Below are positions 14,602-36,805 of a stretch of DNA of 64,000 nucleotides, in pieces (the first letter of the stretch is position 1; every line of letters starts with the position of its first letter). The stretch spans positions 1 through 64,000 of the forward strand of contig JBFRWI010000002.1 in assembly GCA_051439505.1 (NCBI GenBank), read 5' to 3'. A program made the translations under genes and the position numbers. Source of the stretch: Hormoscilla sp. (GTDB taxonomy: Bacteria > Cyanobacteriota > Cyanobacteriia > Cyanobacteriales > Desertifilaceae). The notes beneath the pieces were generated by a model. The model ran no database searches and was not told where the DNA came from. It worked only from the letters and a program-made list of their open reading frames with translations.

Positions 14602-15681
14602 TTACCAGCTTATTGGAATTACGCCCGATCTAGCTTCTAATAGTCCTCTGATAAATTTTTGGGGATCGTCTGAAGGCTTAAGTAGTAATAACACACCCTC
14701 TGTTGTACATCTCTGGTTTCCAGATTCTCGAACGCAAATAACCGGGTAACCATCAACTATTCCATGACCTATATACTTTAGCATCTCGTTTTCGTAGTAA
14801 AACTCGAATCTAGCAGATACAGCCTCACACATTTTCTCAGGAGTAAAGCCATAAGCACTATAATAATCTGAAACCCAAATAATTAGTGGTCGATCTCCCC
14901 TGGCAGTTCTAAATATTGTTTGGGGTCGATCATTATTATATTTATCGTAGTAGAACATAGCAGAATCAGAGCCTGATGTTGAAGTGTTAACTGCTGGTAG
15001 CGCTAGTAATTGTTCCCAAGTATTTCTGGCTGTCAAAAATCTGCTAATCGGAATCCCCAAATACAAACCCACTGGCCCTGTAATCGAATCACCAGCCGCT
15101 CTTCCATTAATCCCCACCACCTGACCCTGCTCGTTCAGCAGTGGACCACCACTCATCCCTTTGTAAGTACCAATATTGGAGTAGACTAAGGCATAGCCAC
15201 CATCTTCAGAACCTGACAGTATACTCGTAATCTTCCCCTCAATAAACTGATAGCTGCGTTCATTAATTCCTGGTATAGGATTGAGCCAACCAGAGACATA
15301 CACAGACTGATTTCGAGAGACATTTTCCGAATTACCTAACTCAGCCACACGGTAGCTTTGGGTACTGGTGAATTGTAACCTTGCCAAGTCTAAACCAGAC
15401 ATTTCCTGGCGATAGTTAACCCTGTGTCGCTTGCCATCGGAAGTCTGAATTACATAGTCCCCCGCATTGTCTACCACGTGCCAGTTGGTGAGGACTGTGT
15501 AATCGTTCCCTTCCCGCTTCACAATCACTCCAGATCCACCTGCTTTTGGTCCATCGATGCGAACGGTAATTTCTTCGGCAATGGTGCTGACATCCTGCGC
15601 TACCGCCACGGAGAATGGCAGTTGCGCTGCTACCATTGCTGTACCGACTAACGCTGCTGACAGTCTATAGGGAAAATTCAT
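14602..15681 (-). CDS. Secreted trypsin-like serine protease (subtype B) fused to a C-terminal COP23 domain
   Basis: Signal peptide; VLTNWHVV, LDLARLQF, GMSGGP; C-terminal RTARGDRPLIIWVS...FTPEKMCEAVSARF...GYPVIC aligns with the neighbouring COP23 proteins. Confidence 0.85.
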   Translation of the reverse strand: MNFPYRLSAALVGTAMVAAQLPFSVAVAQDVSTIAEEITVRIDGPKAGGSGVIVKREGNDYTVLTNWHVVDNAGDYVIQTSDGKRHRVNYRQEMSGLDLARLQFTSTQSYRVAELGNSENVSRNQSVYVSGWLNPIPGINERSYQFIEGKITSILSGSEDGGYALVYSNIGTYKGMSGGPLLNEQGQVVGINGRAAGDSITGPVGLYLGIPISRFLTARNTWEQLLALPAVNTSTSGSDSAMFYYDKYNNDRPQTIFRTARGDRPLIIWVSDYYSAYGFTPEKMCEAVSARFEFYYENEMLKYIGHGIVDGYPVICVRESGNQRCTTEGVLLLLKPSDDPQKFIRGLLEARSGVIPISW

Positions 15682-15739
15682 GGTTCTACCTCCATTGTCG
15701 TTGTTGGGTTTCGTACCTCAACCCAACCTACACTATAAT

Positions 15740-15964
15740 TCATTTCTCTTGCTGTGGTATATCAAGATTATCGCTCATCTGCTGACGAATTGCAGCTATA
15801 ATTTTGGCATCAAAGTCGGGGTCGATCGCGGTTGTGATGACTTTAGGCGATCGCGCTCTGCGGCGATCGAGGTAAGCTTTGAATGCCGCTTCATCGTGAC
15901 GATGTTCGAGAAAGTATCGCCTTAACTGCTGGTCTGACATTGTCACATAGTCAATTTTACTCAT
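15740..15964 (-). CDS. DUF6887-like small cyanobacterial protein
   Basis: MSKIDYVTMSDQQLRRYFLEHRHDEAAFKAYLDR. Confidence 0.7.
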   Translation of the reverse strand: MSKIDYVTMSDQQLRRYFLEHRHDEAAFKAYLDRRRARSPKVITTAIDPDFDAKIIAAIRQQMSDNLDIPQQEK

Positions 15965-16205
15965 TACAGTACCTTGTGGAGTGGGGTGTGGTCAAAACCC
16001 GTTGATACTCTCCCAGTCGCCGGATCCCCCCCAAACCCCCCCTTCCAAAAGGGGGGGCAACCGGCGCGCCCCCCTTTTTAAGGGGGGTTTGGGGGGATCC
16101 TCTGCAACTACTTTTGACCACACCCTGTGGAGTGACTTCAAATTCCAGTTTTTCCTTGTTACCTGCCAGGATGAATAGATAATGAAGTGCGATCGTCAAC
16201 ACAAA
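15965..16205 (-). pseudogene. DUF6888-like remnant: 5'-truncated, frameshifted, MITE-interrupted
   Basis: CVDDRT/(+1 nt)/HYLFILAGNKEKLEFEVTPQG can be reconstructed by hand. Confidence 0.6.
15984..16125. mobile_element. 142-bp MITE with 14-bp TIR GGGTGTGGTCAAAA and 9-bp target-site duplication TGTGGAGTG
   Basis: TIRs at 15984-15997 and 16112-16125; TSDs at 15975-15983 and 16126-16134; internal GGATCCCCCC..GGGGGGATCC hairpin. Confidence 0.9.
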
Positions 16206-16207
16206 AC

Positions 16208-17125
16208 CTACTCAATACAACTTGTTGCTGCTTCTGCATCATCTCTCATCTTCCTAATCAATTCACGAACATCCCGCCTCCTGTATAACTCTCTCATCCG
16301 CCCTCGCCATTCCGAATCATCTGGAGAAAATTGCACGTCCTTGAGTGTCAATTTCGGAGCCTTCTCCATCACTGTTTCAATGGGAATGCCGAAGCTAGAA
16401 CGGGTAATAAATTCCTGTAAAGCTTGACAAGGTTCCGTGCCATCCTGATAATATTCCGGCGCATCCCAGAGGGGATAGGCGTGAATGCCATTAATCGCCA
16501 CTAATTCACCTCTCAAATTGAGCACCGGTCCTCCACTCATGCCCTTTTGCACGTAACTGGTATACCCGATGCGATAGCCATCTTTTAATTCCCTGTCCAT
16601 CACGATCGAGACCCGACCTTCTCTGAGAACAAATCCTGTAAACTCCTGCCCTAGTTCGGAGGCATTAGCCGGTGGATTTTCGGCAACTGCAAACGGAAAC
16701 CCGGCGGAAAATACTTCATCTCCTATTTGCAGAGTTGACGCACGGCCCAGCTTGGCTACTTCATAGACGGCACCCCTGCTGCGGAACTGCAATAGAGCCA
16801 AATCATACTTTTCAAAGTTAACTGTTTCCACGACTTCCGCTATATATATCTCGCCATCCGCTGTTTTAATCTCATAGGGAACCACCCCTGCTCTCAGTAC
16901 ATGGCTATTGGTAACAACAGTATAGACTAAACCTTGCTGCTGAATCAATATTCCCGACCCTAAAGTGCCGTCCGAAAGCACTTTAACTGTAATTGCCTCA
17001 GCAGTCCTGTATAGGCGATCGAATACTAGGCGCGATCGCACGTCATCGGGAGTCAAAACCCGGGCATTGGGCACATCTGCTTGCATGGCAATTAATAAAC
17101 TGCCGATACAGGCCAACAGCATCAT
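16208..17125 (-). CDS. Secreted trypsin-like serine protease, no PDZ (subtype A)
   Basis: VVTNSHVL, YDLALLQF, KGMSGGPVLN; start moved to MMLLACIG to avoid overlap with the upstream COP23 gene. Confidence 0.88.
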   Translation of the reverse strand: MMLLACIGSLLIAMQADVPNARVLTPDDVRSRLVFDRLYRTAEAITVKVLSDGTLGSGILIQQQGLVYTVVTNSHVLRAGVVPYEIKTADGEIYIAEVVETVNFEKYDLALLQFRSRGAVYEVAKLGRASTLQIGDEVFSAGFPFAVAENPPANASELGQEFTGFVLREGRVSIVMDRELKDGYRIGYTSYVQKGMSGGPVLNLRGELVAINGIHAYPLWDAPEYYQDGTEPCQALQEFITRSSFGIPIETVMEKAPKLTLKDVQFSPDDSEWRGRMRELYRRRDVRELIRKMRDDAEAATSCIE

Positions 17126-17165
17126 TGCCCGAGATTTTCCGCGAACCCTACTGGGCCAATATTTT

Positions 17166-17753
17166 TTACCAGAGTTCTTCAAGGTCTTCACTAGGGGTTT
17201 CCTGAACAGTTGCCTTATTGAGAAAAACATCAATATCAACGTAAGCTTCCCCATCCTCATAGAAAAGGAGGTCATCACTCAGCATCAAAGGTTCCTCCCG
17301 ACTGCGATAGCGCAAATCTGTCATTTGCTGTAGGACATCTTTAGGGTCACTTTCCGGTTCCAGCGTGACCAATACATCTTGTTCCCGGCAAGAACCGCCC
17401 TCGCGACTGGCAACGCAAATGACTGGATAACCATTGACATTTCCCGTTCTCATGTAATTGAGCATACCATTTTCGTAGTACCGCTGGAATCGTTGGGATG
17501 CCTCCTCACAGCGGTCCTGGGGAGTCCAACGGGGATTCTTAATCCAATTTGAAACCCAGTGTATCATGGGGACATTTCCCCGGGCAGTGCGAGCCATACT
17601 TGTCGGCACTTCCCCATATCTCGAATTAATATCCCTCCCGCAAAAGAACCCCCGGGTTTGAGCATCGCTAGGCCCTGTGGATATAGTTGCCGTTGCGCCT
17701 AGGGCCAGTGCCAATCCCATCAGCACTCGGACAAATAAGCGTTTGCTAGTCAT
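17166..17753 (-). CDS. Secreted COP23-domain protein
   Basis: Signal peptide; FFCG...VPTSMARTARGNVPMIHWVS...WTPQDRCEEASQRFQ...NGYPVIC...GGSC. Confidence 0.88.
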   Translation of the reverse strand: MTSKRLFVRVLMGLALALGATATISTGPSDAQTRGFFCGRDINSRYGEVPTSMARTARGNVPMIHWVSNWIKNPRWTPQDRCEEASQRFQRYYENGMLNYMRTGNVNGYPVICVASREGGSCREQDVLVTLEPESDPKDVLQQMTDLRYRSREEPLMLSDDLLFYEDGEAYVDIDVFLNKATVQETPSEDLEELW

Positions 17754-17851
17754 TTCACCCTCCGTCAACTCCGACGATCGGTCAATTGCTCTTCTCCAGT
17801 ATACTCCGCACGAGCATAAATTGTGCTTTTTTCTCATTCCCTTCAGCTTCC

Positions 17852-18505
17852 TTATTCAGCGGACTGAAGAGGTTCCTGGTTGAGGAAAACTTCCATATCG
17901 AGGTATGCTTCCCCATCCACATAGAACAGCACCTCATCTTCAGACAACAATTCTTCCTGCAATAATAAAGATTCTCTGCTTACTCCATCGGGGTTCTCAT
18001 TCTCTTCCTGTTCTCTAACAGCAGTTTCAGACCCATCGTAATTCAATTCTAATATTTCACCACGAGCGCGACGGCGCAAATCCGTCATTTGCTCTAGAAT
18101 CAAAGCTGGGTTCCTTCCCCATTTTAGCGTCACCAAGACATCCCGGGGACGACAACTACCCCCCGTACTCGTGCCAACGCAAATTACCCGGTAACCGTTA
18201 ACAATTCCCGTGCGCATGTACTTGAGCATGCCATTATCGTAATACCGCTGGAATCTGTTGGCGATCGCCTGACAGCGGCGTTGGGGAGTCCATCCCGAAT
18301 TGCTAGCCCAATAGGACACCCAGTGGATCATCGGCACATCCCCCCTAGTCGTGCGGGCGATCGTTGCTGGCACGGTGGTGTCGTATCTGTAATTATAATC
18401 CGTTCCACAGAAGAACTGTTGTTCTTGAGCCTTGCTAGGGGTAGTTGCACCTAGGACGAGGGCCAATACCGCCAGCATTTGCACAAATAAGCCTTTGCTA
18501 GTCAT
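17852..18505 (-). CDS. Secreted COP23-domain protein (tandem paralog)
   Basis: Same 4-Cys pattern; AAGGAG RBS; acidic C-terminal insertion. Confidence 0.88.
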   Translation of the reverse strand: MTSKGLFVQMLAVLALVLGATTPSKAQEQQFFCGTDYNYRYDTTVPATIARTTRGDVPMIHWVSYWASNSGWTPQRRCQAIANRFQRYYDNGMLKYMRTGIVNGYRVICVGTSTGGSCRPRDVLVTLKWGRNPALILEQMTDLRRRARGEILELNYDGSETAVREQEENENPDGVSRESLLLQEELLSEDEVLFYVDGEAYLDMEVFLNQEPLQSAE

Positions 18506-18761
18506 GTCACTCTCCTTGAAAAGATGGGCCCCACCGGGTGAGGGCTCCTTAGCCATTATAGCATCACGGCTGCATCTGTTCCGCAAGCATCTATCTGTAG
18601 GGGCGAAGCATTTCGGCGATCGCTTCCCTCATCAATTTACATATTTTCTCTCGAAATGATTCCCCCGTGCTTAGCGTGTTCTGCACCCTCTTGCACCATT
18701 TAAAAAAAATTATACAATTACTTTTGAAATTATTTATTATTCTGTTTTAACCGACACAAAG

Positions 18762-18818
18762 CCGCGTTACCTGGCTCCCGCCTGGTAACGCGGGGGTTTG
18801 AACCCCCGGCGGGCTAAC
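18762..18818. repeat. Palindromic repeat CCGCGTTACCTGGCTCCCGCCTGGTAACGCGG plus GGGTTTGAACCC hairpin
   Basis: Related copies near 27925, 31955, 33781, 44605 and 49350. Confidence 0.7.
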
Positions 18819-18829
18819 TATTCCTCATT

Positions 18830-19285
18830 TTAGCATGGCACGAGGACATCCGATCGTCGCAAAACCCTCATATCCTCCTCATCCAATTCTACCGGAATTC
18901 CACTTCTGATCAACTCGGCAAAATCTTCATTCGGCACCATAATGCACAAAGCATACAACCGTTCTTTCCCCGTGTTTTCAATCAGGTGAGTGCCTGTGGA
19001 CGGCACTAACAGACTATCTCCCGCTTGAATGGGCACCTTTTTCCCGTCACAACTTGCCAGTCCTTCCCCCTTGAGGATAAAAAACATTTCTACTGCCATA
19101 TCGTGTCGGTTAGGAGGTGTCTTACCCCCCACGTCAAAGATTTCTATGCAGTAAGTCAAGGAGAAATCACTAGACTTCGGATCGAAGACGATCGCCAACC
19201 GGGTTCTATCGGTTGTACTTATTCTAAAAACATGGTAATCCCGGGGTGATTTAACCAGCGGGATCATGCAAATATTCTTGTCCAT
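18830..19285 (-). CDS. Cupin domain protein
   Basis: TPPNRHDMAVEMFFILKGEG...AGDSLLVPSTGTHLIEN. Confidence 0.9.
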   Translation of the reverse strand: MDKNICMIPLVKSPRDYHVFRISTTDRTRLAIVFDPKSSDFSLTYCIEIFDVGGKTPPNRHDMAVEMFFILKGEGLASCDGKKVPIQAGDSLLVPSTGTHLIENTGKERLYALCIMVPNEDFAELIRSGIPVELDEEDMRVLRRSDVLVPC

Positions 19286-19287
19286 AA

Positions 19288-20110
19288 TTAATTATATTCA
19301 GTGTTATTGATGCCCTTAATAATCGATTTGGAATCGCAGACAAAACCAAAGCATTGCTTGACATTATAAAGGGTAGCATGCCAGCAATAGTCAGGGGAAG
19401 TCGTAGCAGTATAGTCCGAGACCAAGATGCAGTCATAACCCAAAAAATTAGCATCTTGCAGGGTGGCCATCACGCATTGGTCGGCATTCACCCCCGCAAA
19501 TAAAAGGCTTGTTTTGCCCAGATTCCGTAAAATGCTATCCAGTATCCCAAAAACCGCTCATCCGGTACTTATCCACTTTAAGATCTTCTGGTAACTGCTG
19601 TAATTCGTCAACTACAGCAGCGGCCCAACTGCCAACTGTCAAGACTGGCGCATTATTTTTGGGCAAGGGGTCTCCCAGTCCCACCGCTTCTCCCGTAGAA
19701 TTGTAAACATGACGCAAACCAGCGCTAATATTTAATAAGTCCGGACGATTCCCCCAGTTTACCCAAATTACCGGGACATCTGCTGCCCGCAATGCTGGTA
19801 AGAGTTGATTTAAGGGGTCGATCGGCTTTCGGGCAGGATTGACATCTACCCCAATATGTGCTAACCAGCCATCGGGGTGACAGAAGTCGTTCTGCATGTC
19901 AATGACCAAGATAGCTGCTTTAGCTAAGTCCAGGCGCACCGTCTTAGTTTCTGTGGCCAGGGTGACGGGACTTCGATGTGCTCTGCGCGCGCTATTCGCA
20001 CTACGCATCGCACATCGAGGAGTGATGGCAGCACGAGTGATATCGGCAGTTTCGCCATCGACTCTCCAAGCATTCGGCGGCACTCCCAAACTACGCAGCG
20101 GTTTATTCAT
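19288..20110 (-). pseudogene. Isochorismatase-family cysteine hydrolase, frameshifted at ~19540
   Basis: IDMQNDF and VDKYRMSGFWDT in one frame; DSILRNLGKTSLLFAGVNADQCV continues in another frame. Confidence 0.85.
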
Positions 20111-20181
20111 CCGTTTTTTCTCCTGTAAGACTAGCTAATTAAGTTATCAGCAAACCTGGTTGTAGGAGACAGTTGTTTAGA

Positions 20182-20562
20182 ATGATTAAAGAAATGGTAA
20201 TCTATGCAGGAGGTTGTCACTGTGGGGCCGTCCGCTGGCGGGTGCAGGTTGACAAGCATGAGGCGATCGACTGCAACTGCTCGATCTGCACAAAGAAGGG
20301 TTTTTTGCATGTGATTGTACCGCAAGAGCAGTTTACCTTGCTGCAAGGAGAGGATGTTTTGAGCACTTATACTTTTAACACGGGGATTGCCAAGCATACA
20401 TTCTGCCGGATATGTGGTATACATTCTTTTTATCGACCCCGTTCTCATCCCGACGGCATTAGTGTCAACCGACCCTGTCTGGATGGGGAGGTGACGTCTC
20501 GTTTTGAAATCGTTCCCTTTGACGGAGCCAACTGGGAACAAAACGTGAATCAGATCCGCTAA
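20182..20562 (+). CDS. GFA/CENP-V family zinc-binding protein
   Basis: GGCHCGAV, CNCSICTK, FCRICGIH. Confidence 0.92.
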   Translation: MIKEMVIYAGGCHCGAVRWRVQVDKHEAIDCNCSICTKKGFLHVIVPQEQFTLLQGEDVLSTYTFNTGIAKHTFCRICGIHSFYRPRSHPDGISVNRPCLDGEVTSRFEIVPFDGANWEQNVNQIR

Positions 20563-20592
20563 ATTATAATTATTAACCACAGGAGGGTTGAC

Positions 20593-21672
20593 ATGGAAAC
20601 AAAAACCGAAACGATCAAGCAAAGTCAGTTGATAGGTCGCCTAGTGCTAGACCGGAGTACCACCGAAGAAGTGGGAAAAGTCGAGCAACTCTGGCTAGAC
20701 ACTAAGACCCACGAGGTTTTAGGATTGCTTTGCAAGTCAGGTGGCTTGCTGGGTGGCAAGAAGCAGATATTTAAGTGGACTCAGGTGGCCGCGATCGGGG
20801 ATAGTATCATGCTGGACATGAGTGCTGGCCTGGTAGAGGAAATCAAGCCAGACCAGTTGGATCGTATAATTGGTCACGAACTGTGGACCGATAAGGGTAA
20901 CAAGGCCGGTAAGCTGCTGGACTATCTATTCGATCGCCAGACGGGAAAAGTGATTAACTATATATTCACTTCCAGTGGCTTGACGGGAATAGTCGATGGC
21001 AGTTACCTGCTGTCTCCTGAGATAATTGACAACGTGGGCAGCAAGCGGGTGATTGTTTCCGAGGCCGCTGTGGGGGACAGTCAGCAACATGAAGAAGGGG
21101 TCGGGCAAAAAATCTCGAAGGCCGGAGAATTTCTGCAAGAGGATGCCAAAAAAACTCATAAGGACTTAAAAGCGGTGCAAGCGGCCCTGGGTCAACTGAA
21201 GGAACGGGCCGGGACTGTGGCGGAACAAGCCAAAAAAACCGCTACAGAAACTGCTGGTCAACTGAAGGAACGCGCTGGGACTGTAGCCGAACAAGCCAAG
21301 GAGACTGCTAAAGAGAAAGCAGATCAATTCAAGGAACGCGCTGGGACTGTAGCCGAACAAGCCAAGGAGACTGCTAAAGAGAAAGCAGATCAATTCAAGG
21401 AACGCGCTGGGACTGTGGCCGAACGGGCCAAAGAGACTGCTAAAGAGAAAGCAGATCAATTCAAGGAACGCGCTGGCACTGTGGCCGAACAAGCCAAAAA
21501 AACCGCTACAGAGACCGCTAGTCAACTCAAGGAGAAAGCCGATCGGGTGGTTGAGAAAGCTAAATCACCAGAATCTTCTGAAAAGCAAACCCCTGTCCCC
21601 AGGGTAATAGAAGTGGATGCCGAGGCGGCTGAAGATACGCCAACAGTGGAAGCATCAGAGACTCAGAAGTAG
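20593..21672 (+). CDS. Tandem PRC-barrel protein with LEA-like repeat tail
   Basis: Two PRC-barrel-like units (LIGRLVLD..EVGKV; IIGHELWTDKGNKAGKL); 22-aa repeats. Confidence 0.8.
   Translation: METKTETIKQSQLIGRLVLDRSTTEEVGKVEQLWLDTKTHEVLGLLCKSGGLLGGKKQIFKWTQVAAIGDSIMLDMSAGLVEEIKPDQLDRIIGHELWTDKGNKAGKLLDYLFDRQTGKVINYIFTSSGLTGIVDGSYLLSPEIIDNVGSKRVIVSEAAVGDSQQHEEGVGQKISKAGEFLQEDAKKTHKDLKAVQAALGQLKERAGTVAEQAKKTATETAGQLKERAGTVAEQAKETAKEKADQFKERAGTVAEQAKETAKEKADQFKERAGTVAERAKETAKEKADQFKERAGTVAEQAKKTATETASQLKEKADRVVEKAKSPESSEKQTPVPRVIEVDAEAAEDTPTVEASETQK
21190..21540 (+). repeat. Coding 66-bp tandem repeat x5 (QFKERAGTVAEQAKETAKEKAD)
   Basis: Direct reading. Confidence 0.92.
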
Positions 21673-21773
21673 GGTTGTCCGGAGATATCTAAACAACTGG
21701 GGGGATGAATTTTTCTCATCATTCCCCCATCCCGTGTCAATTCTCAATTTAGGAAATCACAAAGGTATTAGAT

Positions 21774-23177: not shown

Positions 23178-23404
23178 AAATTGGGAATTGAAAATTGGGA
23201 ATTGAAAATTGGGAATTGCGAATAAGCAACTAACAACTGACAAAGTCATTATAGGATAAACATCCATTAATGTCAACAAATGGCTGGCATCTGTGGCGCA
23301 GGATCTCGCCCAAATCCTGGCAAATAGTAGGAGAAAAAGGTTAAATCGAGGTTAAAATAGGATTAAGTATGAGAATAATTAGTAAAAAGCTCTACTATTG
23401 ACAA

Positions 23405-23608
23405 ATGCTGAAGATCGGAAGCTTGGTGCGGGTGCTGTACCCAGAATATGCTGCGGGTATCCTGGGGAGAATTCTGGATAACGAACCATCCGGTAGGTGG
23501 ATAGTGCAGTTAGAGTATAACCCGATCGAAGATGATGAAGATCCTCTGCTGTTGTCTTTAGAGGAGTCAGAATTTGAAGTCATTAGGTCGGATCCGAGGG
23601 ATGACTAG
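23405..23608 (+). CDS. Small hypothetical protein (SH3-like)
   Basis: 67-aa ORF KIGSLVRVLYPEYAAG...GRWIVQL; operon-like spacing. Confidence 0.65.
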   Translation: MLKIGSLVRVLYPEYAAGILGRILDNEPSGRWIVQLEYNPIEDDEDPLLLSLEESEFEVIRSDPRDD

Positions 23609-23617
23609 GGGGGAAAA

Positions 23618-23851
23618 ATGAAAGATATCTCAGATTTTCTCTATCCGCGCAGCCGCTATTATGGTAAAATCACGCCAGAAAGCTTGATTTTCAACGCTAA
23701 CCTACAGGAGTTTGCCCAGCGGGTGAGTTTGATCTGCGCTTTGGAAACCGGTGGCAAGCTGTCACCAGAAGAATCTTACAATCAAATTGAGGTTCTCTGG
23801 GAACAGTTGGAACGCACAACCAAGCAACTGGGCATTGGCAATAGTTCTTAG
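23618..23851 (+). CDS. Conserved cyanobacterial small protein
   Basis: FLYPRSRYYG..TPESLIFNANLQEFAQRVSLICALETGGKLSP. Confidence 0.85.
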   Translation: MKDISDFLYPRSRYYGKITPESLIFNANLQEFAQRVSLICALETGGKLSPEESYNQIEVLWEQLERTTKQLGIGNSS

Positions 23852-23898
23852 TACGTAAGGGGAAACAGCTTGAGGACTTTAGTCCTCACTACAAACGG

Positions 23899-27712: not shown

Positions 27713-27998
27713 GGTGCTCACCCTAATCTTATTTTCTCGTGCGATCTTCGATATTGGGAGCTATCCACCCTACATCATATATGCAATAATTTGGCATTTT
27801 TTATTTGGCGTTGCACAACAACGGGACGATCGGGGTTGACAATTTAAAATTGTGAATGGTAAATCTAAATAGTTATAAATGTTCATCAATAGACAAATCC
27901 TGGCTTTTCAATTTGCAATTTTCCTCGTTCCCTGGCTCCCGCCTGGGAACGGCAATTGGCAACAATTGACTGCTATCATCGGTAAAAATGTGCAACGC

Positions 27999-29336: not shown

Positions 29337-29363
29337 ATCGTTCTCAGGTGAGGATTAACTAAG

Positions 29364-30551
29364 ATGGTAAGCGATCCCTATGGATGGCTGGAAAAATCTC
29401 TGGAAACCATACACCGCGCTAACTGGTATCGTCAGGTGGTGACGATTGACAGTCGGCCCGGTCCAGTGGTACAGTTGGCAGGCAGGTCGGTGCTGAATTT
29501 TGCTAGCAATGATTATTTGGGATTAGCAGGAGACCCACGCCTGATTCAAGCTGCCGTTAGCGCCACAGAAGCATGGGGGACGGGTAGTACGGGTTCGCGA
29601 CTGCTCAGCGGACATCGACAGTTGCACCGGGACACCGAAAGGGCGATCGCCTCTTTTAAGCAAACAGCAGATGCGATGGTATTTAGTTCGGGGTATCTGG
29701 CCAACCTGGGGGCGATCGCCGCTGTGGTGGGCAAGCGAGATTTGATTCTTTCGGACCGGTACAATCATTCTAGTCTGAAAAATGGTGCCTTACTCAGCGG
29801 TGCGAGGGTGCTTGACTATGGCCACTGTAACATAGAGGATCTCAAAAGTAAGCTGCATCAGCATCGAGAGGAATATCGCCGCTGTGCGATCGTCACCGAT
29901 AGCGTGTTCAGTATGGATGGGGACTTATGTCCCTTGCCCGAGCTGCTAGACTTAGCAGCAGAGTTCGGCTGTATGCTATTGATAGATGAAGCCCACGCCA
30001 CAGGGGTCTTGGGTGCTACCGGTGCTGGTTGCGTAGAACATTTTGGGCTGCGGGGACGAGAATTAATACAGGTTGGTACCCTCAGCAAGGCATTGGGTAG
30101 TTTGGGCGGTTATGTTGCTGGCAGTGAAATGCTAATTGATTTTCTCAGAAATCGCGCCCCAGGCTGGATCTATACTACTGGACTAACTCCAGCAGATACT
30201 GCCGCTGCCTATGAGGCGATCGGGATCTGCCAAAGGGAACCCCAAAGGCGCGCTCAACTGTGGCAGAATATCACTTACACCAAACAGCTAATTTCCCAAC
30301 AACTGCCCCTATGCCAACTTTTTCCCTCTGAGTCTGCCATCATCTGCATTAAACTAGAGAATGCAGCAGATGCCTTAACAGTGGGAGAGAAACTGAAAGC
30401 TGCGGGGATTTTTGCCCCTGCCATCCGCCCGCCCACCGTCAGTACCAGTCGCATTCGCATCTCACTGATGGCGACCCATGAAGCAACTCACCTGCATCAG
30501 TTAGTTGCTGCCCTCGATCGGATAATCCCTCCGCGAGGGGAAGCTTTATGA
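29364..30551 (+). CDS. bioF: 8-amino-7-oxononanoate synthase
   Basis: [45 protein letters not shown]. Confidence 0.96.
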
Positions 30552-30680
30552 ATTATTTGTGAAGATTCATTGCTGGTCGGATAATTGCTGCTATTTTGAT
30601 TAAACTAGACAAGTATGCTGTGGGCGCGAGTCTGTGGGCCACAACACAAATCAGCCAAGGTGATGAGGAGTACAAAAAAC

Positions 30681-31544
30681 ATGATTCGATATTTAAAGCT
30701 GCTGCAAATTATCCCAGTGACAATAGTGAGTTGGGGAATCTTCTGGGGTTTGACTGGGCCAATAGCATGGAGTCTGGAATCCTCTCAAGAGGAGATGGCA
30801 GAAGTTGACAGTACCAAAGCCGAAGACTTATTGCTGTCTGGAGAAACAGAGATATTGCTGTCGGAAACTTGGCAATTTAATCAGAAAATAGATGACCGCA
30901 GGGAAATCGCCCAATTAGGAGATGATGCGGGCACAAGTGGCTTTGCGATCGTGCCCAAAGCAGGTACTCTGGGGTTGGGTGCAGATGTGGTAGCACAGAT
31001 AATACCGCATCTGAACGGTCGAGTGGGGATAAGCGGCTTGGGGATAGATGTAGAGGTGAGTTCAGATGAAATAGATTATGATGGAGATGTGAATTTGGGG
31101 GGTGTCCCTTTGTTGCTTGATTGGTATCCTGCCAAGAGTGGTTTTCGCGTCACGGGTGGATTAGTCATCAACAATAACGAAATTGATTTGGATGCCAAGG
31201 GTCGCGATGAAGACAGAACGATTACAATCGGCGATCGGTCCTTTACGGTTAACGACGTGGGAGATCTAGAGGGGGAAGTTGAATTTAATGACATAGCGCC
31301 GTACATTGGCATTGGATTCGGGAATCCGGTAAAACCGGGAAGACAGTGGGGTTTTACGGTGGATCTGGGCATCATGTTTCAAGGTGCAGGAGATGTAAAT
31401 ATCAGGGCAACTAATGCATCTCAAGCAGCACTGGATCTGGGACTGAATGAGCAACTAGAAAGGGAAGAAGATGACATTCAAGATGAAGTAGATAATTTTA
31501 AGGTGTACCCGATATTACAGATTGGGGTAACCTACCAATTTTGA
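30681..31544 (+). CDS. Outer-membrane beta-barrel protein, copy 1
   Basis: Signal-like N-terminus, KAGTLGLGAD, APYIGIGFG, C-terminal GVTYQF. Confidence 0.8.
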   Translation: MIRYLKLLQIIPVTIVSWGIFWGLTGPIAWSLESSQEEMAEVDSTKAEDLLLSGETEILLSETWQFNQKIDDRREIAQLGDDAGTSGFAIVPKAGTLGLGADVVAQIIPHLNGRVGISGLGIDVEVSSDEIDYDGDVNLGGVPLLLDWYPAKSGFRVTGGLVINNNEIDLDAKGRDEDRTITIGDRSFTVNDVGDLEGEVEFNDIAPYIGIGFGNPVKPGRQWGFTVDLGIMFQGAGDVNIRATNASQAALDLGLNEQLEREEDDIQDEVDNFKVYPILQIGVTYQF

Positions 31545-31657
31545 TGGAGTTCGTAGTAAACGCGAAGCGCGTTTGCCAGAGTTCGTAGTGGCTGCGATCC
31601 ATTTGGGAAAAACAATGCTAGAATTGGTTTAAGGATCGTCGTCTTAGTCGGTTTTAA

Positions 31658-31938
31658 CTCAGATCTTGTACCATTGTCAATTAATCGATTAGTCTCCTGG
31701 CCCGCCGTGGGTTAAAAACCACGGCTAATAGCTGAAGTCGGTTGAAAACCGACTCTCTACCTTATAAATAAAGTTTTTTCCCTCGTTCCTCTCGTCCCTA
31801 CAGGCGACCTCGTTTTACCGAGGGGAAATCTTTATCTAGACAAGGCATACAGTGGGTTTTAACCCACTTAAGCTATTAGCCAGGGGTTTTAACCCCTGGC
31901 GGGGTAGCGGGCTTTTTGACAATGGTGCAAGATCTCAA
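31658..31938. mobile_element. MITE (TIR CTCAGATCTTGTACCATTGTCAA / TTGACAATGGTGCAAGATCTCAA) with an internal REP-like inverted pair
   Basis: Flanked by duplicated TTTTAA; internal ~52-bp inverted repeats at 31701-31754 and 31851-31903. Confidence 0.8.
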
Positions 31939-32029
31939 TTTTAACCGACTTGAGCCGAGTTACCTGGCTCCTGCCTGGTAACTCGGGGGTGGGACGGCGG
32001 ACTAACAGCGAAGTAAGGGGATTACTGAG

Positions 32030-32881
32030 ATGATTAGATATGTCAAGTTGCTGCAAATTATCCCAGTTACAATAGTGAGTTGGGGAATATCCTCGGGTTT
32101 GACTGGGTCAATAGCAGCAAGTATTGAGTCAAATGCAGAGGAAGTTGACAGTATCAAAGCAGAAGACTTATTGATGCCTGGAGAAACCGAGATAATCCTG
32201 TCAGAAAGTTGGCAGTTCGATCGGAAGATTGATGACCCAGAAGAGATCGCCCAAGTGCCGCTTTTGGGCCTCAGTGGGTGGGCGATCGGGCCAAAAGCCG
32301 GAACCCTAGGATTAGGTGCAGATATAGTCAAAAGTATCCTGCCAAATCTGAATGCCCGAGTCGGGTTAAGCGGCTTGGATATAGGAGTAGATATCAGTTC
32401 TGATAACATTGATTATGAGGGGGATGTAAATCTGGGAGGTATCCCCCTGTTGGTAGATTTTTATCCACTTTTTAGTGGCTTTCGGGTCACGGGTGGATTA
32501 GTGATCAACAATAACAAGATTGAGGTGGATGCCAAGGGTCGGGATGAGGACGGGAGTATCAGAATAGGCGATCGGGATTTTACAGTGAGGGATGTGGGAG
32601 ATATCAAGGGTGATGTAGAATATAACGACATTGCCCCGTACATTGGGATTGGATTCGGAAATCCGGTGAGACCGGGAAAAAGCTTTGGTTTTTCAATAGA
32701 TATCGGGGTAATGTTTCAAGGTGCCGGAGATGTAAGTCTGAGGGCCACTAATCCGAGTCCAGCAGCGCTATCCGCCGGAATTAACGCCCAACTGGAAAGG
32801 GAGGAAGATGACCTTCAAGATGAGGTTGATAAGATTCAAGTATACCCGATATTACAGATTGGGGTAACCTACCAATTTTAA
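32030..32881 (+). CDS. Outer-membrane beta-barrel protein, copy 2
   Basis: Paralog of 30681-31544 with the same VYPILQIGVTYQF end. Confidence 0.8.
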   Translation: MIRYVKLLQIIPVTIVSWGISSGLTGSIAASIESNAEEVDSIKAEDLLMPGETEIILSESWQFDRKIDDPEEIAQVPLLGLSGWAIGPKAGTLGLGADIVKSILPNLNARVGLSGLDIGVDISSDNIDYEGDVNLGGIPLLVDFYPLFSGFRVTGGLVINNNKIEVDAKGRDEDGSIRIGDRDFTVRDVGDIKGDVEYNDIAPYIGIGFGNPVRPGKSFGFSIDIGVMFQGAGDVSLRATNPSPAALSAGINAQLEREEDDLQDEVDKIQVYPILQIGVTYQF

Positions 32882-32897
32882 TTGGGTTCCTAGGGTG

Positions 32898-33126
32898 GAA
32901 TGTCACTGACTGAAGCTGTCATTGCGATTTTTCGCGCAGCGTGGGGGGATCCCCAACCGAGATGAAAGAAAACTCCACCAACAGACCCCCCGAAGCAATC
33001 TCCCTACTAACGGCTGGAGGTTGAGATTGCTTCGGGGGGGATGCTAGTGTAAGATGATGATGATTCGCTTTGGCACCCCCCCTCGCAATGACATTAACAA
33101 CTTGATCCCTTAAGTCAGTGCCATTC
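32898..33126. mobile_element. MITE-like element (GAATGTCACTGACTGAAG / CTTAAGTCAGTGCCATTC) enclosing a TGTCATTGCGA...TCGCAATGACA palindromic element
   Basis: Outer TIR matches 16/18; inner 11-bp IR at 32917-32927 and 33083-33093. Confidence 0.65.
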
Positions 33127-33311
33127 TTCGTAGGGTAGGCACCGCCCACCATGCTAGTTCGTAGGCACCGCCCACCATGCTGTAGCGCCAAATTTGCTCG
33201 CCACTGCCGCTGCCGCGACAACTTCACGATGAATGAAGAGCAAAATTTACTTGCGTTAGGGTCCATAATGGTAAAATTACTCTTGAACAACAATAATAGG
33301 AGCATTATTCC

Positions 33312-33746
33312 ATGGCCCTGACAGCAGGTACAGTCGCGCCCGACTTCACCGTGAAGGACACCAACGGCAACACCGTCAAGCTATCCGACTTCGCGGGCAA
33401 AACCGTCGTGCTATACTTTTACCCCAAAGACGACACTCCCGGCTGCACCAAGGAAGCCCAAAGCTTCCGAGATAACTATGCGGAGTACCAGAACAAGGAT
33501 ATGGTCGTTTTGGGAGTCAGCACGGACGACGAAGCATCCCACAAGCAGTTTACCGAGAAATTCGGCCTGCCGTTCCAATTGCTGGCCGATACCGACGGTG
33601 CAATTATGAAGGCTTACGATGTCGATGGGGGCGGCTATGCCAAGCGCGTCACTTACATTATCGACAGTGAAGGCAAAATTTCCCAAGTCATCGACAAAGT
33701 GCAAACTGCAACCCACGCCCAGGATATTTTAACGTCCATGTCCTAA
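33312..33746 (+). CDS. bcp: Peroxiredoxin Q/BCP
   Basis: VVLYFYPKDDTPGCTKEA, RVTYIID. Confidence 0.93.
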   Translation: MALTAGTVAPDFTVKDTNGNTVKLSDFAGKTVVLYFYPKDDTPGCTKEAQSFRDNYAEYQNKDMVVLGVSTDDEASHKQFTEKFGLPFQLLADTDGAIMKAYDVDGGGYAKRVTYIIDSEGKISQVIDKVQTATHAQDILTSMS

Positions 33747-33845
33747 TAAAAGTTGAGTCGGACGGGGCATCTCATTGCATCTCGTTCCCAGGTAGAACCT
33801 GGGAACGTCTATTAAAGGCTCTGCCTTCAGTGCCAAGGAAGGCTC

Positions 33846-34082
33846 TTAGCTTCTCCGACAGTTTTTCTGGTTCATTCTCACGCAGGTACAATAATTGCTC
33901 GCGCACTTCTTTCTTGCACCTTCTTGACATCGCCCCGCAAGCTGCCTCTTGACGCGGATATTCGTGATGGGTATTTTTGAGAGCGTTGCTTCTTTCAAAA
34001 TTCCCTCGGATATACCTATGGAAATACCCTCCATCTGTTCGAGAACATCATTGGGATATCTGCGCAGCGAAGGCATCGCCAA
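33846..34082 (-). other. Cys-rich ORF overlapping the protease stop; possible frameshifted C-terminus
   Basis: Open frame ending RCQEGARKKCASNYCTCVRMNQKNCRRS*. Confidence 0.35.
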
Positions 34083-34782
34083 GTTCCATTAAACGTCTTA
34101 TCTTTGATGGTAATTTGTTGAAAATAATCGTAGTGGGAATACCGATGAAACCTTGCCAAGGTTTCTCACGTATGTGTATCCCTATTACGTGACCGTTATT
34201 ATCGAGGACTGGTCCACCACTCATACCTGCTTTTGTTTGCTCCTCCGTATTATTTGCATTATAGAGCAAACGGTAATCATTGACTTCTGGATCTACATAT
34301 CTAGGATTCACCATGTTCAGATGAGAAAGCTTAAAAGTATTCTCCCCTTTTGACCAACCAAAAACGTATATAGATCCAGTTCGTTTGCCAAAATGTCCTA
34401 GCTTCGCCACTTCATAATTGTTTTCTGTGCTCTCGAACCGCAATACTGCTAAGTCCACGCCTTTCCGTCTGTCAATCTTGCTAGATCTAACCATATAGAT
34501 TTTGCCATCAGGAGTCTCAACCTGATATGATTGTTTTTCTCTTACCACATGCTCTGCTGTGAGGACGTAGTAAGTTTCGTCGTCCCGAGCAATTATCACC
34601 CCTGTTCCCTCAGTCTTCCATCGCCCCGGATATAGTATGTTGGGTCTGTTAATTTTTACCGCCATCGCTTTAGCACGATTCTCGACCTGACGAGAAGTGA
34701 GTGCTGATTGCGCTGGCACCTGAGAAAGCATGACTATTGCGGTGCCGATCAATGCTGCTGGTAGCTTATTGGATAAATTCAT
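34048..34782 (-). CDS. Secreted trypsin-like serine protease (subtype B), possibly truncated
   Basis: MNLSNKLPAALIGTAIV signal; VLTAEHVV, VDLAVLRF, AGMSGGPVL. Confidence 0.82.
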   Translation of the reverse strand: MNLSNKLPAALIGTAIVMLSQVPAQSALTSRQVENRAKAMAVKINRPNILYPGRWKTEGTGVIIARDDETYYVLTAEHVVREKQSYQVETPDGKIYMVRSSKIDRRKGVDLAVLRFESTENNYEVAKLGHFGKRTGSIYVFGWSKGENTFKLSHLNMVNPRYVDPEVNDYRLLYNANNTEEQTKAGMSGGPVLDNNGHVIGIHIREKPWQGFIGIPTTIIFNKLPSKIRRLMELGDAFAAQISQ

Positions 34783-34809
34783 TCAATCTTCTCCTTCTTC
34801 AACATTGTT

Positions 34810-36201
34810 TTAGATTTCAATAAGCTCCCGGTCTTCAATAAGCTCCGGGTCTTTTTTATAACGTCTAACTTTTTCATCATAGTGATATACCAAGTAATAT
34901 CTCTTGTCTTCTTTCGTTGGATCGATCAATCCAACAATTACTTCTGGTTCTCTAGTCTCGTTTTCACCATCTAAATCTCGAACCTCAATAGCCCAAACTT
35001 TGCCTCTATCTGCAACTGGCTTTTCGTCTTCAATTGTAACATTGCGTGTATCTATTTGAGCTTTTCTTCTTTCTATTTCTAAACTATAGTTCCTTTCCCG
35101 TACAGATCCGGATATTATTGCCTGCACACGTTGAGAGCAATTATCATCATTCTCATTAAAATAATATGTAGATACTAGAGGGAATTTTCCGGACTGTGCC
35201 CCGGTTGAATTGCACTGTAACGCTGGCTCTCTGGGGTCTGTTACAGTTGTTTCTGGCGGCGTTGGCGGCTTTGGTTTTGGCGGCGGCGCTGGTTTTGGCG
35301 GCAGAGGAACAGGTGAAGGTATAGATGGGGGAACCCCGGCTATCGGAGGGTTGATTATAGAAGCATACTTTGGCTCTCTCAACTTGTCAATCGCGATCGC
35401 CCAGCTAGAGTTTTCGAGCAGGTCTCTTGACCTGTCAACTGGGTCGCCATTCCTATACACATAAAAATCTCGATTTCCTTGCCCAAAAGGTATAGGATGG
35501 CTATGCTTACCATTAATCCCAACAACCTCACCATTGCTATTGAGCAGTGGTCCCCCACTCATCCCCTTTTCTATATCGACATAATATCCCACTCTGTAGC
35601 CCATTTCCATCTCCCGATCGAGGATCAAAGAAATCTCCCCTGACTCGCATTTAAATCCTCTTGAAACAGACGGATCTGCTATGATTGGAAACCCCGCTGC
35701 CAACACTATTTGACTCGGTTCTAGAGTAGATGTGGCTCTGAAAGTGGCTATCTCATACTTACTTGTACTATTGAACTGCAATATTGCAAGATCGTCAGCT
35801 AAACCGTTCTCGTCGTAGCGTTTTATCAATTTCGCCGCATATAAACTGTCATCATGAGTTTGAACTTGATAATCCCTATTGTCCCCAACTACATGCGCCC
35901 TATTGTCCCCAACTACATGCGCATTAGTCAGAACCTTATAAAGCCTTTGTGTTCCCTCAACTTTTTTCTCAATCAGAATTCCTGTACCCTCAGCAATTCG
36001 ATTTTCTGACAATATCTTGACAGTGAATTTTTCAGCCCGATCGCACACTTGCTTCTCTGATAATTCAGTTTGTTTTAGGAATGAGTTGCTTAAGGTGATA
36101 TTTTTTTTCAAGTAATGGATAGCAGGTTCCTGTGCTGGCAGATGGATGCACAAAATGCCAACACAAACCCCTGCGATCCCTAAGCTCCAGTTCATCATCA
36201 T
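34810..36201 (-). CDS. Secreted trypsin-like serine protease (subtype A) with Pro-rich linker and unknown C-terminal domain
   Basis: VLTNAHVV, DDLAILQF, KGMSGGPLLN; PPKPAPPPKPKPPTPP linker. Confidence 0.87.
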   Translation of the reverse strand: MMMNWSLGIAGVCVGILCIHLPAQEPAIHYLKKNITLSNSFLKQTELSEKQVCDRAEKFTVKILSENRIAEGTGILIEKKVEGTQRLYKVLTNAHVVGDNRAHVVGDNRDYQVQTHDDSLYAAKLIKRYDENGLADDLAILQFNSTSKYEIATFRATSTLEPSQIVLAAGFPIIADPSVSRGFKCESGEISLILDREMEMGYRVGYYVDIEKGMSGGPLLNSNGEVVGINGKHSHPIPFGQGNRDFYVYRNGDPVDRSRDLLENSSWAIAIDKLREPKYASIINPPIAGVPPSIPSPVPLPPKPAPPPKPKPPTPPETTVTDPREPALQCNSTGAQSGKFPLVSTYYFNENDDNCSQRVQAIISGSVRERNYSLEIERRKAQIDTRNVTIEDEKPVADRGKVWAIEVRDLDGENETREPEVIVGLIDPTKEDKRYYLVYHYDEKVRRYKKDPELIEDRELIEI

Positions 36202-36253
36202 CTCAGCTTAAGTTATAATTTGCTGATTTTTCCCTGCTACTGAAACTATTCTA

Positions 36254-36805
36254 CTATTCTGCCTGATTGTCGTAGAGCAGTTCTTCCACATCAATGTATA
36301 AATTACCTTCCCAGTCGTATATTTTAATATGCTGGGACTGATTGAAAGACGAACTCCGATCGCGCGCATCAAGTAGCTTTTCAAGAACCGCGTTTGGATC
36401 TTCGCTCTCGTCCGGCAATATCGTGAATAGCATATTGATCCTGTTGCATGGTACGCCTACTTCTTGAGTACCACACACGACATAATAATTTCCCACTTTT
36501 CCAATGTTAAAATATTTAAGCTCCTCGGACTCGTGTAAACGCTGGAATCTCTTAGAAACCTCTTTACAGCGCTTCTCCGGTGTCCAGCCTGACAGGGCAA
36601 AAGCTTCAGAACGCCAGCGAATCAGAGGAATTGGTCCTCGGGAGGCTTTATACATTGTCGTTTGTATACCATTCCTCTTACGGCAGAAGAATAAAGTCTC
36701 GTCGCGTTGAGCACTTTCAGCTGCACTCGGCCTGTCTAGAGCCACCGTAGCCCCTAGCACGCACATCAGCGCTGCCAGGACTTTAGTCAATGTCATCTGT
36801 TTCAT
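36254..36805 (-). CDS. Secreted COP23-domain protein
   Basis: Signal peptide; FFC...RGPIPLIRWRS...GWTPEKRCKEVSKRFQ...VVC...PC...LFTI. Confidence 0.88.
   Translation of the reverse strand: MKQMTLTKVLAALMCVLGATVALDRPSAAESAQRDETLFFCRKRNGIQTTMYKASRGPIPLIRWRSEAFALSGWTPEKRCKEVSKRFQRLHESEELKYFNIGKVGNYYVVCGTQEVGVPCNRINMLFTILPDESEDPNAVLEKLLDARDRSSSFNQSQHIKIYDWEGNLYIDVEELLYDNQAE

Follow-up and report, generated by a model that had tools for sequence, protein, structure and literature searches.

We found that COP23, a trypsin-like protease of one group (A) and a protease of a second group (B) are encoded in one conserved order, often beside a gene for a Ser/Thr kinase, and we put the chances at about even that B cuts the COP23 of its own operon. 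From sequence, we established the gene order, the division of the proteases into two S1 groups, a conserved site in COP23, a match between that site and the pocket of B, and the linkage to kinases. The window is a stretch of 64,000 nucleotides from Hormoscilla sp. that contains two such loci.

Two COP23-protease loci in the window

A sequence-only reading of this DNA had described COP23, protease A and protease B in the same order at two loci, and we found the same order, with all seven ORFs on the minus strand (Table 1). Several other features from that reading also held up. The four proteases matched PF13365 (Trypsin_2) with intact His/Asp/Ser triads (A1, H126/D159/S248; B1, H68/D98/S177; A2, H95/D137/S215; B2, H78/D110/S188), all have GMSGGP around the catalytic Ser, none has a PDZ domain in a Pfam scan, and the A-specific motifs and the B leader were seen in the alignment. 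The loci are not a recent duplication: A1 and A2 are 33% identical, B1 and B2 are 34% identical, and at the DNA level the loci match each other over a single stretch of 60 bp (82%). The same reading had counted the module twice, which is too few. There are 25 Pfam matches to COP23 in the genome, and 14 of 25 COP23 ORFs that lack a protease domain precede such proteases.

Table 1. Features at and around the two loci of the window
Feature	Position	Strand	Basis
COP23, locus 1, first copy	17852..18505	-	PF14218, E 1e-36
COP23, locus 1, second copy, Leu-type site	17166..17753	-	PF14218, E 5e-40
Predicted scissile bond Leu-Ser, second COP23 of locus 1 (model residues 127-128)	17277..17282	-	alignment column
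Protease A1, Trypsin_2, V190/N213 (chymotrypsin numbering)	16208..17125	-	Pfam; A side of tree
DUF6887 small gene between A1 and B1	15740..15940	-	PF21826, E 5e-18
Protease B1, Trypsin_2 (T190/N213) with C-terminal COP23	14602..15681	-	Pfam; B side of tree
Fused COP23 domain of B1	14605..14940	-	PF14218, E 1e-25
Ser/Thr kinase with C-terminal PsbP-like domain, convergent with locus 1	12092..13570	+	Pkinase and PF18933
COP23, locus 2, Gln-type site	36254..36805	-	PF14218, E 9e-34
Predicted scissile bond Gln156-Ser157, COP23 of locus 2	36335..36340	-	alignment column
Protease A2, Trypsin_2 (I190/N213), Pro-rich linker and C-terminal domain	34810..36201	-	Pfam
Protease B2, Trypsin_2 (T190/H213), catalytic domain only	34048..34782	-	Pfam
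Ser/Thr kinase-WD40, 392 bp from locus 2 and divergent from it	37197..39071	+	Pfam

Three ORFs extend upstream of the likely starts used here: 17852-18586 for the first COP23 (Met at 18505), 17166-17837 for the second (17753) and 16208-17278 for A1 (17125). The four COP23 domains in the window scored 90-137 bits against a gathering cut-off of 27, and PF14218 was the sole Pfam match at E≤0.01 in the proteins of the three COP23 ORFs. The first COP23 of locus 1 has a hydrophobic leader, four Cys and an acidic insertion following the site. B1 is a protease-COP23 fusion, with the COP23 domain at residues 248-352; GC content is 38% in the fused COP23 part and 48% in the protease part. The tail of A2 had no Pfam match at 1e-12. 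A1 and B1 are separated by 527 bp, with a dispersed repeat (265 BLAST pieces across the genome) and the DUF6887 gene (66 aa). We treated both as insertions, and the DUF6887 gene is probably outside the system.

Gene order across genomes

When loci were fetched with A alone, 73 of 80 had COP23 immediately upstream and 57 of the 80 had the full order COP23-A-B, in agreement with the earlier proposal of a conserved unit. COP23 was at most 2 kb upstream of 44 of 54 A-type matches (expected by chance, 0.05). The downstream B was absent in 22 of the 80 A-found loci (3 of these near contig ends). Because COP23-A alone is common, a model with COP23 as a substrate of B only leaves this arrangement unexplained. 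As had been supposed, A and B are position-specific groups: the first slot held 55 A and 11 B, the second slot held 48 B and 2 A, and A and B were on separate sides of the tree. In 102 triplets the median gaps were 32.5 and 36.5 bp, and A and B were fused in 24. These comparisons leave out 3 unlisted matches, the fetched regions L065 and L154 (no COP23 ORF), 29 matches that scored under the gap for A and the 4 bottom A-type rows. Word-based homolog searches were uninformative, with 2 matches, or 1 match for longer forms.

It is possible that the genes are merely co-regulated in an operon for secreted proteins that is duplicated en bloc, without direct contact between the products. Linkage alone can yield co-divergence and one residue switch, and each part is also found alone. 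No COP23 was within 5 kb upstream of 32 of 81 B-type matches, A-B-TPR fusions without COP23 exist downstream of a pair of genes for a sigma factor and DUF1822, and 58 of 119 COP23 ORFs in other genomes were without a protease. However, the order has persisted over many genera while mean identity is about 35-46%, and A-B and B-COP23 fusions occur repeatedly. In addition, the kinase, COP23, A and B of one locus (G000 C186) share a C-terminal two-Cys tag that was present in 4 of 7981 ORFs, with a search pattern written from these four. We think that co-regulation without contact is very unlikely.

The C-terminal modules of the proteases are swappable, as the sequence-only reading had suggested, and include TPR, WD40, GUN4 and Pilin_GH. 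COP23 is itself portable. It is appended to B proteases, to a caspase-like domain (L115) and to an AAA_35 protein (L165), and it is fused to fasciclin (G000 C84) and DUF1565 beta-helices (G000 C190). Its divergence follows each protease more closely than A and B follow each other (partial distance correlations: COP-A 0.56, COP-B 0.36, A-B 0.18). Both observations would fit a COP23 that functions as a docking or scaffold module, gathering A, B and other cargo at the cell surface, with the E, Q or L of the site described below being structural and uncut.

Expression

Three consecutive Arthrospira tags in Table 1 of PMC13114239, RS07465 (COP23), RS07460 and RS07455 (serine proteases), change together. 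Their log2FC values in the 25-row table of differentially expressed genes are -1.97, -2.08 and -2.10, respectively; we identified these genes through tag and product name alone. Contigs from four RNA libraries (three studies) cover a relative locus, L105, and two of them bridge the COP23-A junction. Because their strand is unknown and DNA carry-over is possible, we did not count these contigs as co-transcription.

Pockets of proteases A and B

The pocket of A is aliphatic and HtrA-like, with I or V at position 190 in 117 of 133 sequences and N213 in 129 of 133. The pocket of B is mostly of the Glu/Gln type by sequence, with T190 in 82 of 134 and H213 in 98 of 134. His213 together with Thr or Ser at 190 is a mark of Glu/Gln-specific proteases, according to PMC5508998. 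This pocket is present in B2 and absent in B1 (T/N) and in A. Alignments A3 (48 rows) and A4 (51 rows) showed no variation at the catalytic His, Asp and Ser, and V8 was among the PDB matches of B (E 8e-16). An AlphaFold2 model of a natural A-B tandem (pLDDT 84, pTM 0.65) had both domains folded and did not show a fixed packing. Prediction of a complex of A1, B1 and COP23 scored 0.00 in two runs, with the controls not folded, and we did not count it in either direction.

A conserved site in COP23 matches the pocket of B

A site of the form (L/I/V)-x-(E/Q or L)-S, lying in a floppy loop, is conserved in protease-linked COP23s. Among 143 linked COP23s, the site residue was E in 47, Q in 24 and L in 53, and the next residue was Ser in 88. 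L, I or V was present two residues upstream in 53 of 71 COP23s of the E/Q type and 52 of 53 of the Leu type. The pattern hydrophobic-x-(E/Q)↓S is similar to that of 3C-type sites.

We had foretold a match between this residue and the pocket of B before testing for it. The partner B had Thr (or Ser) at 190 and His at 213 for 59 of 59 E/Q-type COP23s and for 1 of 38 Leu-type COP23s; 46 of the 143 were dropped for having no readable B or a residue other than E, Q or L. The B pockets in the Leu clade had 10 states, and 9 of 18 unlinked B proteases had the T/H pocket. On the COP23 tree, the match comes down to a single P1-S1 switch (sign test with one independent pair, p = 1) and so could reflect shared ancestry; B may simply have kept Thr190/His213 as its ancestral state. 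As it stands, the residue match points to COP23 occupying the active site of B. The fused COP23s of B1, L199, L115 and L165 end, as judged by eye, at the residue equivalent to P1. An uncut docking module would give no reason for these endings, nor for a T/H pocket that is uniform in the B partners of E/Q-type COP23 and lost exactly at Leu-type COP23, and we consider that reading quite unlikely.

The AlphaFold2 model of the second COP23 of locus 1 had a pLDDT of 82.9. Segment 123-128, which holds the predicted Leu-Ser bond, had pLDDT<50, and the predicted site falls outside the two disulfides of the model. Searches with COP23 gave no match in Foldseek at E≤0.001 (the C-terminal half was barely covered), none in a PDB sequence search (best E 0.72) and no usable match beyond PF14218 in the ESM Atlas. 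With residues 1-66 only, the best VIA match was a PH-type fragment (Z 5.6, rmsd 2.4, 49 residues).

It is also possible that COP23 is a trans-encoded inhibitor or folding helper, that is, a detached pro-domain, whose loop or new C-terminus occupies the active site and holds the protease pair inactive until it is required, with no signal relayed. This is a specific version of the role as inhibitor, chaperone or adaptor that the sequence-only reading had proposed. The P1-S1 match serves this reading equally. The tails of the pro-regions of alpha-lytic protease and subtilisin block active sites, and the fused copies ending at P1 resemble product-type inhibitors. Long pro-peptides are folding assistants in bacterial glutamyl endopeptidases, also according to PMC5508998. 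In addition, the operon begins with COP23, which can be amplified, as in the five copies at L105. However, the loops of canonical inhibitors are rigid. The low-confidence loop outside the disulfide core is somewhat more in keeping with a substrate than with such an inhibitor. Furthermore, many B proteases and some A-B fusions lack COP23, indicating that COP23 is not required for folding. This reading would also account neither for the kinase linkage nor for the conserved tail that follows the site. We regard the inhibitor or helper role as doubtful.

Linkage to Ser/Thr kinases

A Ser/Thr kinase gene flanks each locus in the window. The sequence-only reading had overlooked this linkage, as well as the protease-COP23 and A-B fusions and the unlinked COP23 clade described below. 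Kinases were near 19 of 54 linked loci compared to 3 of 56 orphan-COP23 loci, and most modules had no kinase nearby (35 of 54 and 47 of 80). A PsbP-like domain was present in 41 of 56 module-linked kinases. These are on at least four kinase lineages and occur in varied orientations relative to the module, which also argues against mere co-regulation. In the kinase-PsbP-like family, 15 of 18 members were at most 8 kb from COP23 and 3 of 18 stand alone. The kinase convergent with locus 1 (Pkinase and PsbP_2, with a hydrophobic segment) is, alone among the genome's 69 kinases, of the kinase-PsbP type, and the kinase-WD40 beside locus 2 is in one clade with other module-linked kinases. Most linked kinases have a strongly hydrophobic 19-residue window after the kinase domain, and we infer the topology of a receptor kinase with an extracytoplasmic PsbP-like domain. 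A PDB sequence search with the PsbP-like domain gave no match.

A separate branch of the COP23 family

One COP23 clade, distinct and single-copy, was never protease-linked (30 of 30 rows). This rules out COP23 as a universal protease partner and limits our claim to one branch of the family. The predicted site is mostly missing from this orphan clade (28 of 32 long orphan ORFs were gapped). COP23 is still listed without known function, and in diatom endosymbionts its homologues rank among the genes with the highest expression. The COP23 of Synechococcus/Cyanothece RF-1 is reported to be membrane-located, with light- and Ca2+-dependent degradation and a function described as unresolved (10.64898/2026.04.23.720389). 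It belongs to the same Pfam family as the COP23s of the window.

In the literature searched, supplements excluded, we found no paper that links COP23 to proteases or kinases and no description of a COP23-protease-kinase system. COP23 neighbourhoods may be listed in the supplements of PMC7159879 and PMC8195603. COP23 is absent from PMC8283722, and PMC12876843 was a false match.

Proposed mechanism

Based on hydrophobic leaders and the two disulfides in COP23, all three proteins are probably exported. Outside the cell membrane, B would cut COP23 at the conserved (L/I/V)-x-(E/Q or L)↓S site and thereby detach a short hairpin-helix tail at the C-terminus from the disulfide core. Now ending in P1, the core would probably stay bound as a product-like brake or docking module; several fused copies appear to encode this form directly. 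The variable TPR, WD40 and GUN4 tails of B may set the trigger or the location of the cut. A, apparently the tightest partner of COP23, could act upstream, either activating B or making a second, aliphatic cut. In the least certain step, the PsbP-like outer domain of the kinase would read the cleavage state. The complete relay would be an extracellular cascade in which A activates B, B cuts a folded, disulfide-bonded COP23 pro-ligand at a locus-matched site and the cleavage product acts on the PsbP-like outer domain to switch a Hanks-type kinase. It is offered tentatively, and we think it rather unlikely as a whole. The paralogous cassettes, about ten in the genome, would then be insulated channels through which multicellular cyanobacteria sense damage, neighbours or invaders.

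For the linked COP23 branch, we can now name, as testable predictions, a partner enzyme, the bond that it would cut and a swap of specificity. A genomic context is also gained for an orphan sensor domain of kinases and for two cyanobacterial groups of proteases that had no name. If B cuts COP23, this would be the first molecular role for COP23, in a signalling switch outside the cell membrane. If the receptor step is also true, filamentous and colonial cyanobacteria would have a proteolysis-to-phosphorylation signalling route across the membrane.

Comparison to known systems

The closest solved relatives of A and B are HtrA, DegP, DegQ, DegS and the cyanobacterial HhoA and HhoB (best E, 4e-24 for A and 9e-24 for B). 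HtrA-type rows and A both have I190/N213, and A, B and the HtrA family are alike in probable export. In contrast, position 194 is Met in 132 of 133 A and 128 of 134 B, and Asn in 10 of 10 HtrA-type rows. The PDZ of HtrA is also absent from the protease tails scanned at 1e-12, and A and B score at most 65 bits against NCBIfam HtrA-family cut-offs of at least 408. The GMSGG motif, the lack of PDZ and these scores rule out membership in the HtrA family. Unlike HtrA, A and B are encoded as a pair with COP23.

B carries His213 with Thr190, as in the glutamyl endopeptidases (V8, BIGEP) and viral 3C-like proteases. In contrast to these enzymes, one B lineage lacks the Thr190/His213 pair, B has variable TPR, WD40 and GUN4 tails, and its predicted substrate is the product of a neighbouring gene.

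The Trypco1/Trypco2-trypsin and NucA-trypsin systems of multicellular bacteria likewise have a small dedicated gene beside a trypsin-like peptidase. Tandem peptidases are proposed to act as cascades in those systems, and GUN4, TPR and kinase domains are in common; the main text of Kaur et al. 2020 (PMC7159879), which describes them, does not mention COP23. Unlike these systems, COP23 had no Trypco match at E 0.01 and export-type leaders are present. In addition, no MoxR/vWA, STAND or nuclease cluster was among the 22 commonest neighbour clusters of 134 loci, judged by example sequences.

Spaetzle-Toll in insects and the peptide pheromones of bacteria are pro-ligand, protease and receptor signalling systems. 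In both, dedicated proteases cleave a secreted precursor, which a membrane receptor then senses, as in our proposal; we do not claim homology. By comparison, the precursor in our proposal is COP23, a folded 4-Cys domain for which no fold matched clearly. Its proteases form an S1 pair encoded in the operon, and a Hanks-type kinase bearing a PsbP-like domain is the candidate receptor.

Two COP23-protease loci in the window

All seven genes that the sequence-only reading had placed in two loci were recovered as ORFs at the positions it gave. They encode three COP23 proteins (PF14218) and four Trypsin_2 proteases with full triads and GMSGGP. As had been claimed, none of the four proteases had a PDZ domain in a Pfam scan, and the loci are strongly diverged (protein identity 33-34%, DNA identity almost nil). 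The earlier reading had overlooked a fourth COP23 domain at the end of B1 (Pfam), a repeat and a DUF6887 gene that separate A1 from B1, and a Ser/Thr kinase gene flanking each locus (Pfam). GC content is 38% in the fused COP23 part of B1, compared to 48% in the protease part of B1 and in the window, which suggests that the fused part is a later graft. Other features of the window are listed with the COP23 fusions found elsewhere. The C-terminal Tyr-Gln-Phe motif of the tandem paralogues is typical of outer-membrane beta-barrels.

Features of the window and of other COP23 loci (C, contigs of the Hormoscilla genome; L, fetched loci)
Feature	Sequence	Positions	Remark
Kinase-PsbP gene	window	12092-13570	sole one in the genome
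Dispersed repeat family	window	13590-14080	139 BLAST pieces in genome
Locus 1: two COP23, A1, B1	window	14602-18505 (minus)
Fused COP23 part of B1	window	14610-14950
Dispersed repeat family	window	15984-16125	265 BLAST pieces in genome; includes inverted G/C-rich runs
Isochorismatase-family ORF	window	19535-20110	profile positions 2-102 of 175 only; may be truncated or frameshifted
Tandem paralogous proteins	window	30615-31544, 32030-32881	1.2 kb from locus 2; no Pfam match; end in Tyr-Gln-Phe
Locus 2: COP23, A2, B2	window	34048-36805 (minus)
COP23-fasciclin fusion	C84	7598-9031
Module with shared two-Cys tag	C186 (L169)	6198-11430
COP23-DUF1565 beta-helix fusion	C190	1184-4367	DUF1565 gene also within five-copy COP23 array of L105
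COP23-caspase-like fusion	L115	4750-6369
COP23-AAA_35 fusion	L165	4036-6231

COP23 is linked to two kinds of protease in a conserved order

In the Hormoscilla genome there were 25 Pfam COP23 matches, and local profiles found 26 COP23 ORFs and 31 trypsin-like ORFs. Same-strand proteases follow 14 of the 25 COP23 ORFs that lack a protease domain. COP23 was present in 40 of 121 genomes sampled evenly across the phylum. We fetched 112 regions around 125 listed COP23 matches outside this genome; they contained 119 COP23 ORFs, of which 61 preceded one to three protease domains and 58 had no protease after them.

COP23 was within 2 kb upstream of 44 of 54 A-type matches (53 genomes; 0.05 expected); most of the sequences behind that A profile came from these genomes themselves. 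For a more independent test, A alone served as the query. Among the best 80 of 550 GTDB loci (Nostoc, Scytonema, Fischerella, Calothrix, Pleurocapsa, Oscillatoria and others, kin among them not being independent), COP23 was upstream in 73, B was downstream or fused in 58, and both were present in 57. That is, the proposed order is conserved. B was more loosely tied, with 49 of 81 B-type matches within 5 kb downstream of COP23; lone B genes and A-B-TPR fusions without COP23 both occur. One genome has four near-identical copies of a stand-alone B (L185, L186), three close to a gene that we take to be psbA-like. In six loci (L058, L064, L066, L073, L080, L088) COP23 is closely preceded by a third protease, of GNSGG type; in the two that were scanned, Pfam assigned no tail. 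COP23-free A-B-TPR fusions at L175, L176 and L177 immediately follow a sigma-factor-like gene and DUF1822, a pair reported in other conflict-system neighbourhoods (PMC8195603).

A and B are separate groups, as had been predicted. A single branch (support 94, unstarred) divided them in a tree of 141 domains, in which HtrA-type rows grouped on the A side, and each kept its position: the first slot after COP23 held 55 A and 11 B, and the second 48 B and 2 A. Among 102 complete triplets, median gaps were 32.5 and 36.5 bp and A and B were a single chain in 24. A crude hydropathy test picked out leader-like stretches in A (55/57), B (50/51) and COP23 (131/144). Protease tails included TPR, WD40, GUN4 and Pilin_GH. 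In the S1 pocket, A had I/V190 (117/133) and N213 (129/133), as in HtrA; B had T190 (82/134) and H213 (98/134), a pair described for Glu/Gln-specific proteases (PMC5508998). Membership of A and B in the HtrA family was rejected based on the GMSGG motif and family cut-offs.

The COP23 loop residue matches the B pocket

Four Cys were present in 203 of 226 COP23 domains. In the COP23 model (pLDDT 82.9), a beta-meander with a helix is followed by a hairpin with a second helix, then by a disordered loop (123-128) and a short hairpin-helix tail; no match stood out in fold searches. About half of the unlinked COP23s group in one clade of long-tailed, single-copy proteins (FastTree support 99; 30 rows: L063, L076, L082 and 27 similar loci), with no protease-linked member in the tree. 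This clade is a candidate for the true orthologue group of circadian COP23. In the tree, the clade has no member from the Hormoscilla genome, which is 93% complete.

Because B looked Glu/Gln-specific and the COP23 loop consensus contained 'ES', we compared the loop residue to the B pocket. Of 143 linked COP23s, 47 had E, 24 had Q and 53 had L at this predicted site, usually followed by Ser; 28 of 32 long orphan COP23 ORFs had a gap there. Position -2 was L/I/V in 53 of 71 E/Q-type and 52 of 53 Leu-type sites. In 97 COP23-B pairs, T(S)190 with H213 was found in 59/59 with an E/Q site and 1/38 with a Leu site, although the Leu type is one clade and the match therefore counts as one independent event (p = 1). 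B pockets of the Leu group had ten different states, and unlinked B had T/H in 9 of 18. The window contains both types: a Gln COP23 with B2 (T/H) and a Leu COP23 with B1 (T/N). In 4 of 11 fused copies (B1, L199, L115 and L165), COP23 ended at the P1-equivalent residue in an alignment read by eye; five retained site and tail (four being one lineage), and two were too diverged to read.

The most likely reading, to which we give an even chance, is that the loop site is where B binds and cleaves the COP23 of its own operon. The cut would free the tail, and the core would then end in P1 and probably remain bound. It is also possible, with roughly half that likelihood, that COP23 is an inhibitor or pro-domain; this relies on the same COP23-B contact and differs from cutting only in turnover. 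A scaffold role for COP23 is unlikely, as it fits the residue pattern poorly. Co-regulation has been recorded: in PMC13114239, consecutive Arthrospira platensis tags for COP23 and two serine proteases, identified by tag and product name only, drop together (log2FC -1.97, -2.08 and -2.10). The table has 25 rows, and the text gives 21 genes and names only 'several serine proteases'. That the genes are merely co-regulated seems very improbable, again fitting the residue pattern poorly.

In the cleavage reading, A, which accompanies COP23 more consistently than B does, would act at an earlier step or make a separate aliphatic cut. Partial distance correlations were 0.56 (COP23-A), 0.36 (COP23-B) and 0.18 (A-B); that is, A and B each track COP23 better than each other. 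Because there are loci with only COP23 and A, the role of A is not secondary.

Kinases and a PsbP-like domain near the modules

The top neighbour cluster of 134 loci, found at 65, contains kinases. A kinase profile matched 19 of 54 linked loci versus 3 of 56 orphan-COP23 loci with the same summed length (Fisher p 9e-5, overstated by kinship). Kinases were near 33 of the 80 A-found loci, and in 13% of random windows of the Hormoscilla genome. A PsbP-like C-terminal domain was present in 41 of 56 such kinases; 26 of these 41 genes lie downstream in convergent orientation, 8 lie upstream, on the same strand, and 7 are placed otherwise. Eighteen members of the kinase-PsbP family were counted in 12 of 53 genomes; 15 lie no more than 8 kb from a COP23, and 3 stand alone. 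At least four kinase lineages carry the domain, as do CHAT proteins at two loci and a kinase-free gene inside the C186 double module. One clade, chosen afterwards, of 16 of the 69 Hormoscilla kinases includes all six that are module-adjacent. The kinase could be an optional reader of the cassette.

At C186, kinase, COP23, A and B share a two-Cys C-terminal tag found in only these four of 7981 ORFs, by a pattern written from them. Other loci carry their own two-Cys tags (18 protease, 16 COP23 and 3 kinase tails). The shared tag may be a signal by which the proteins of one locus are sorted or paired.

Comparison with known systems

Among described arrangements, the Trypco-trypsin pairing (PMC7159879) comes closest; the parts that define it in that main text are absent here. 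COP23 is not mentioned in the main texts of PMC7159879 and PMC8195603. Other reports treat COP23 as circadian or nitrogen-linked, of unknown function (10.64898/2026.04.23.720389, 10.1101/2021.03.24.436785, PMC11131595). We found no description of a COP23-protease-kinase system in the literature searched, supplements and subscription journals being outside its scope; as far as that literature reaches, the parts of the cassette had not been connected. The overall scheme would be one known in kind: a precursor, a dedicated protease and a receptor, as in Spaetzle-Toll signalling and pro-peptide pheromones. The predicted site has an analogy in 3C cleavage sites, and the inhibitor reading in pro-region inhibitors.
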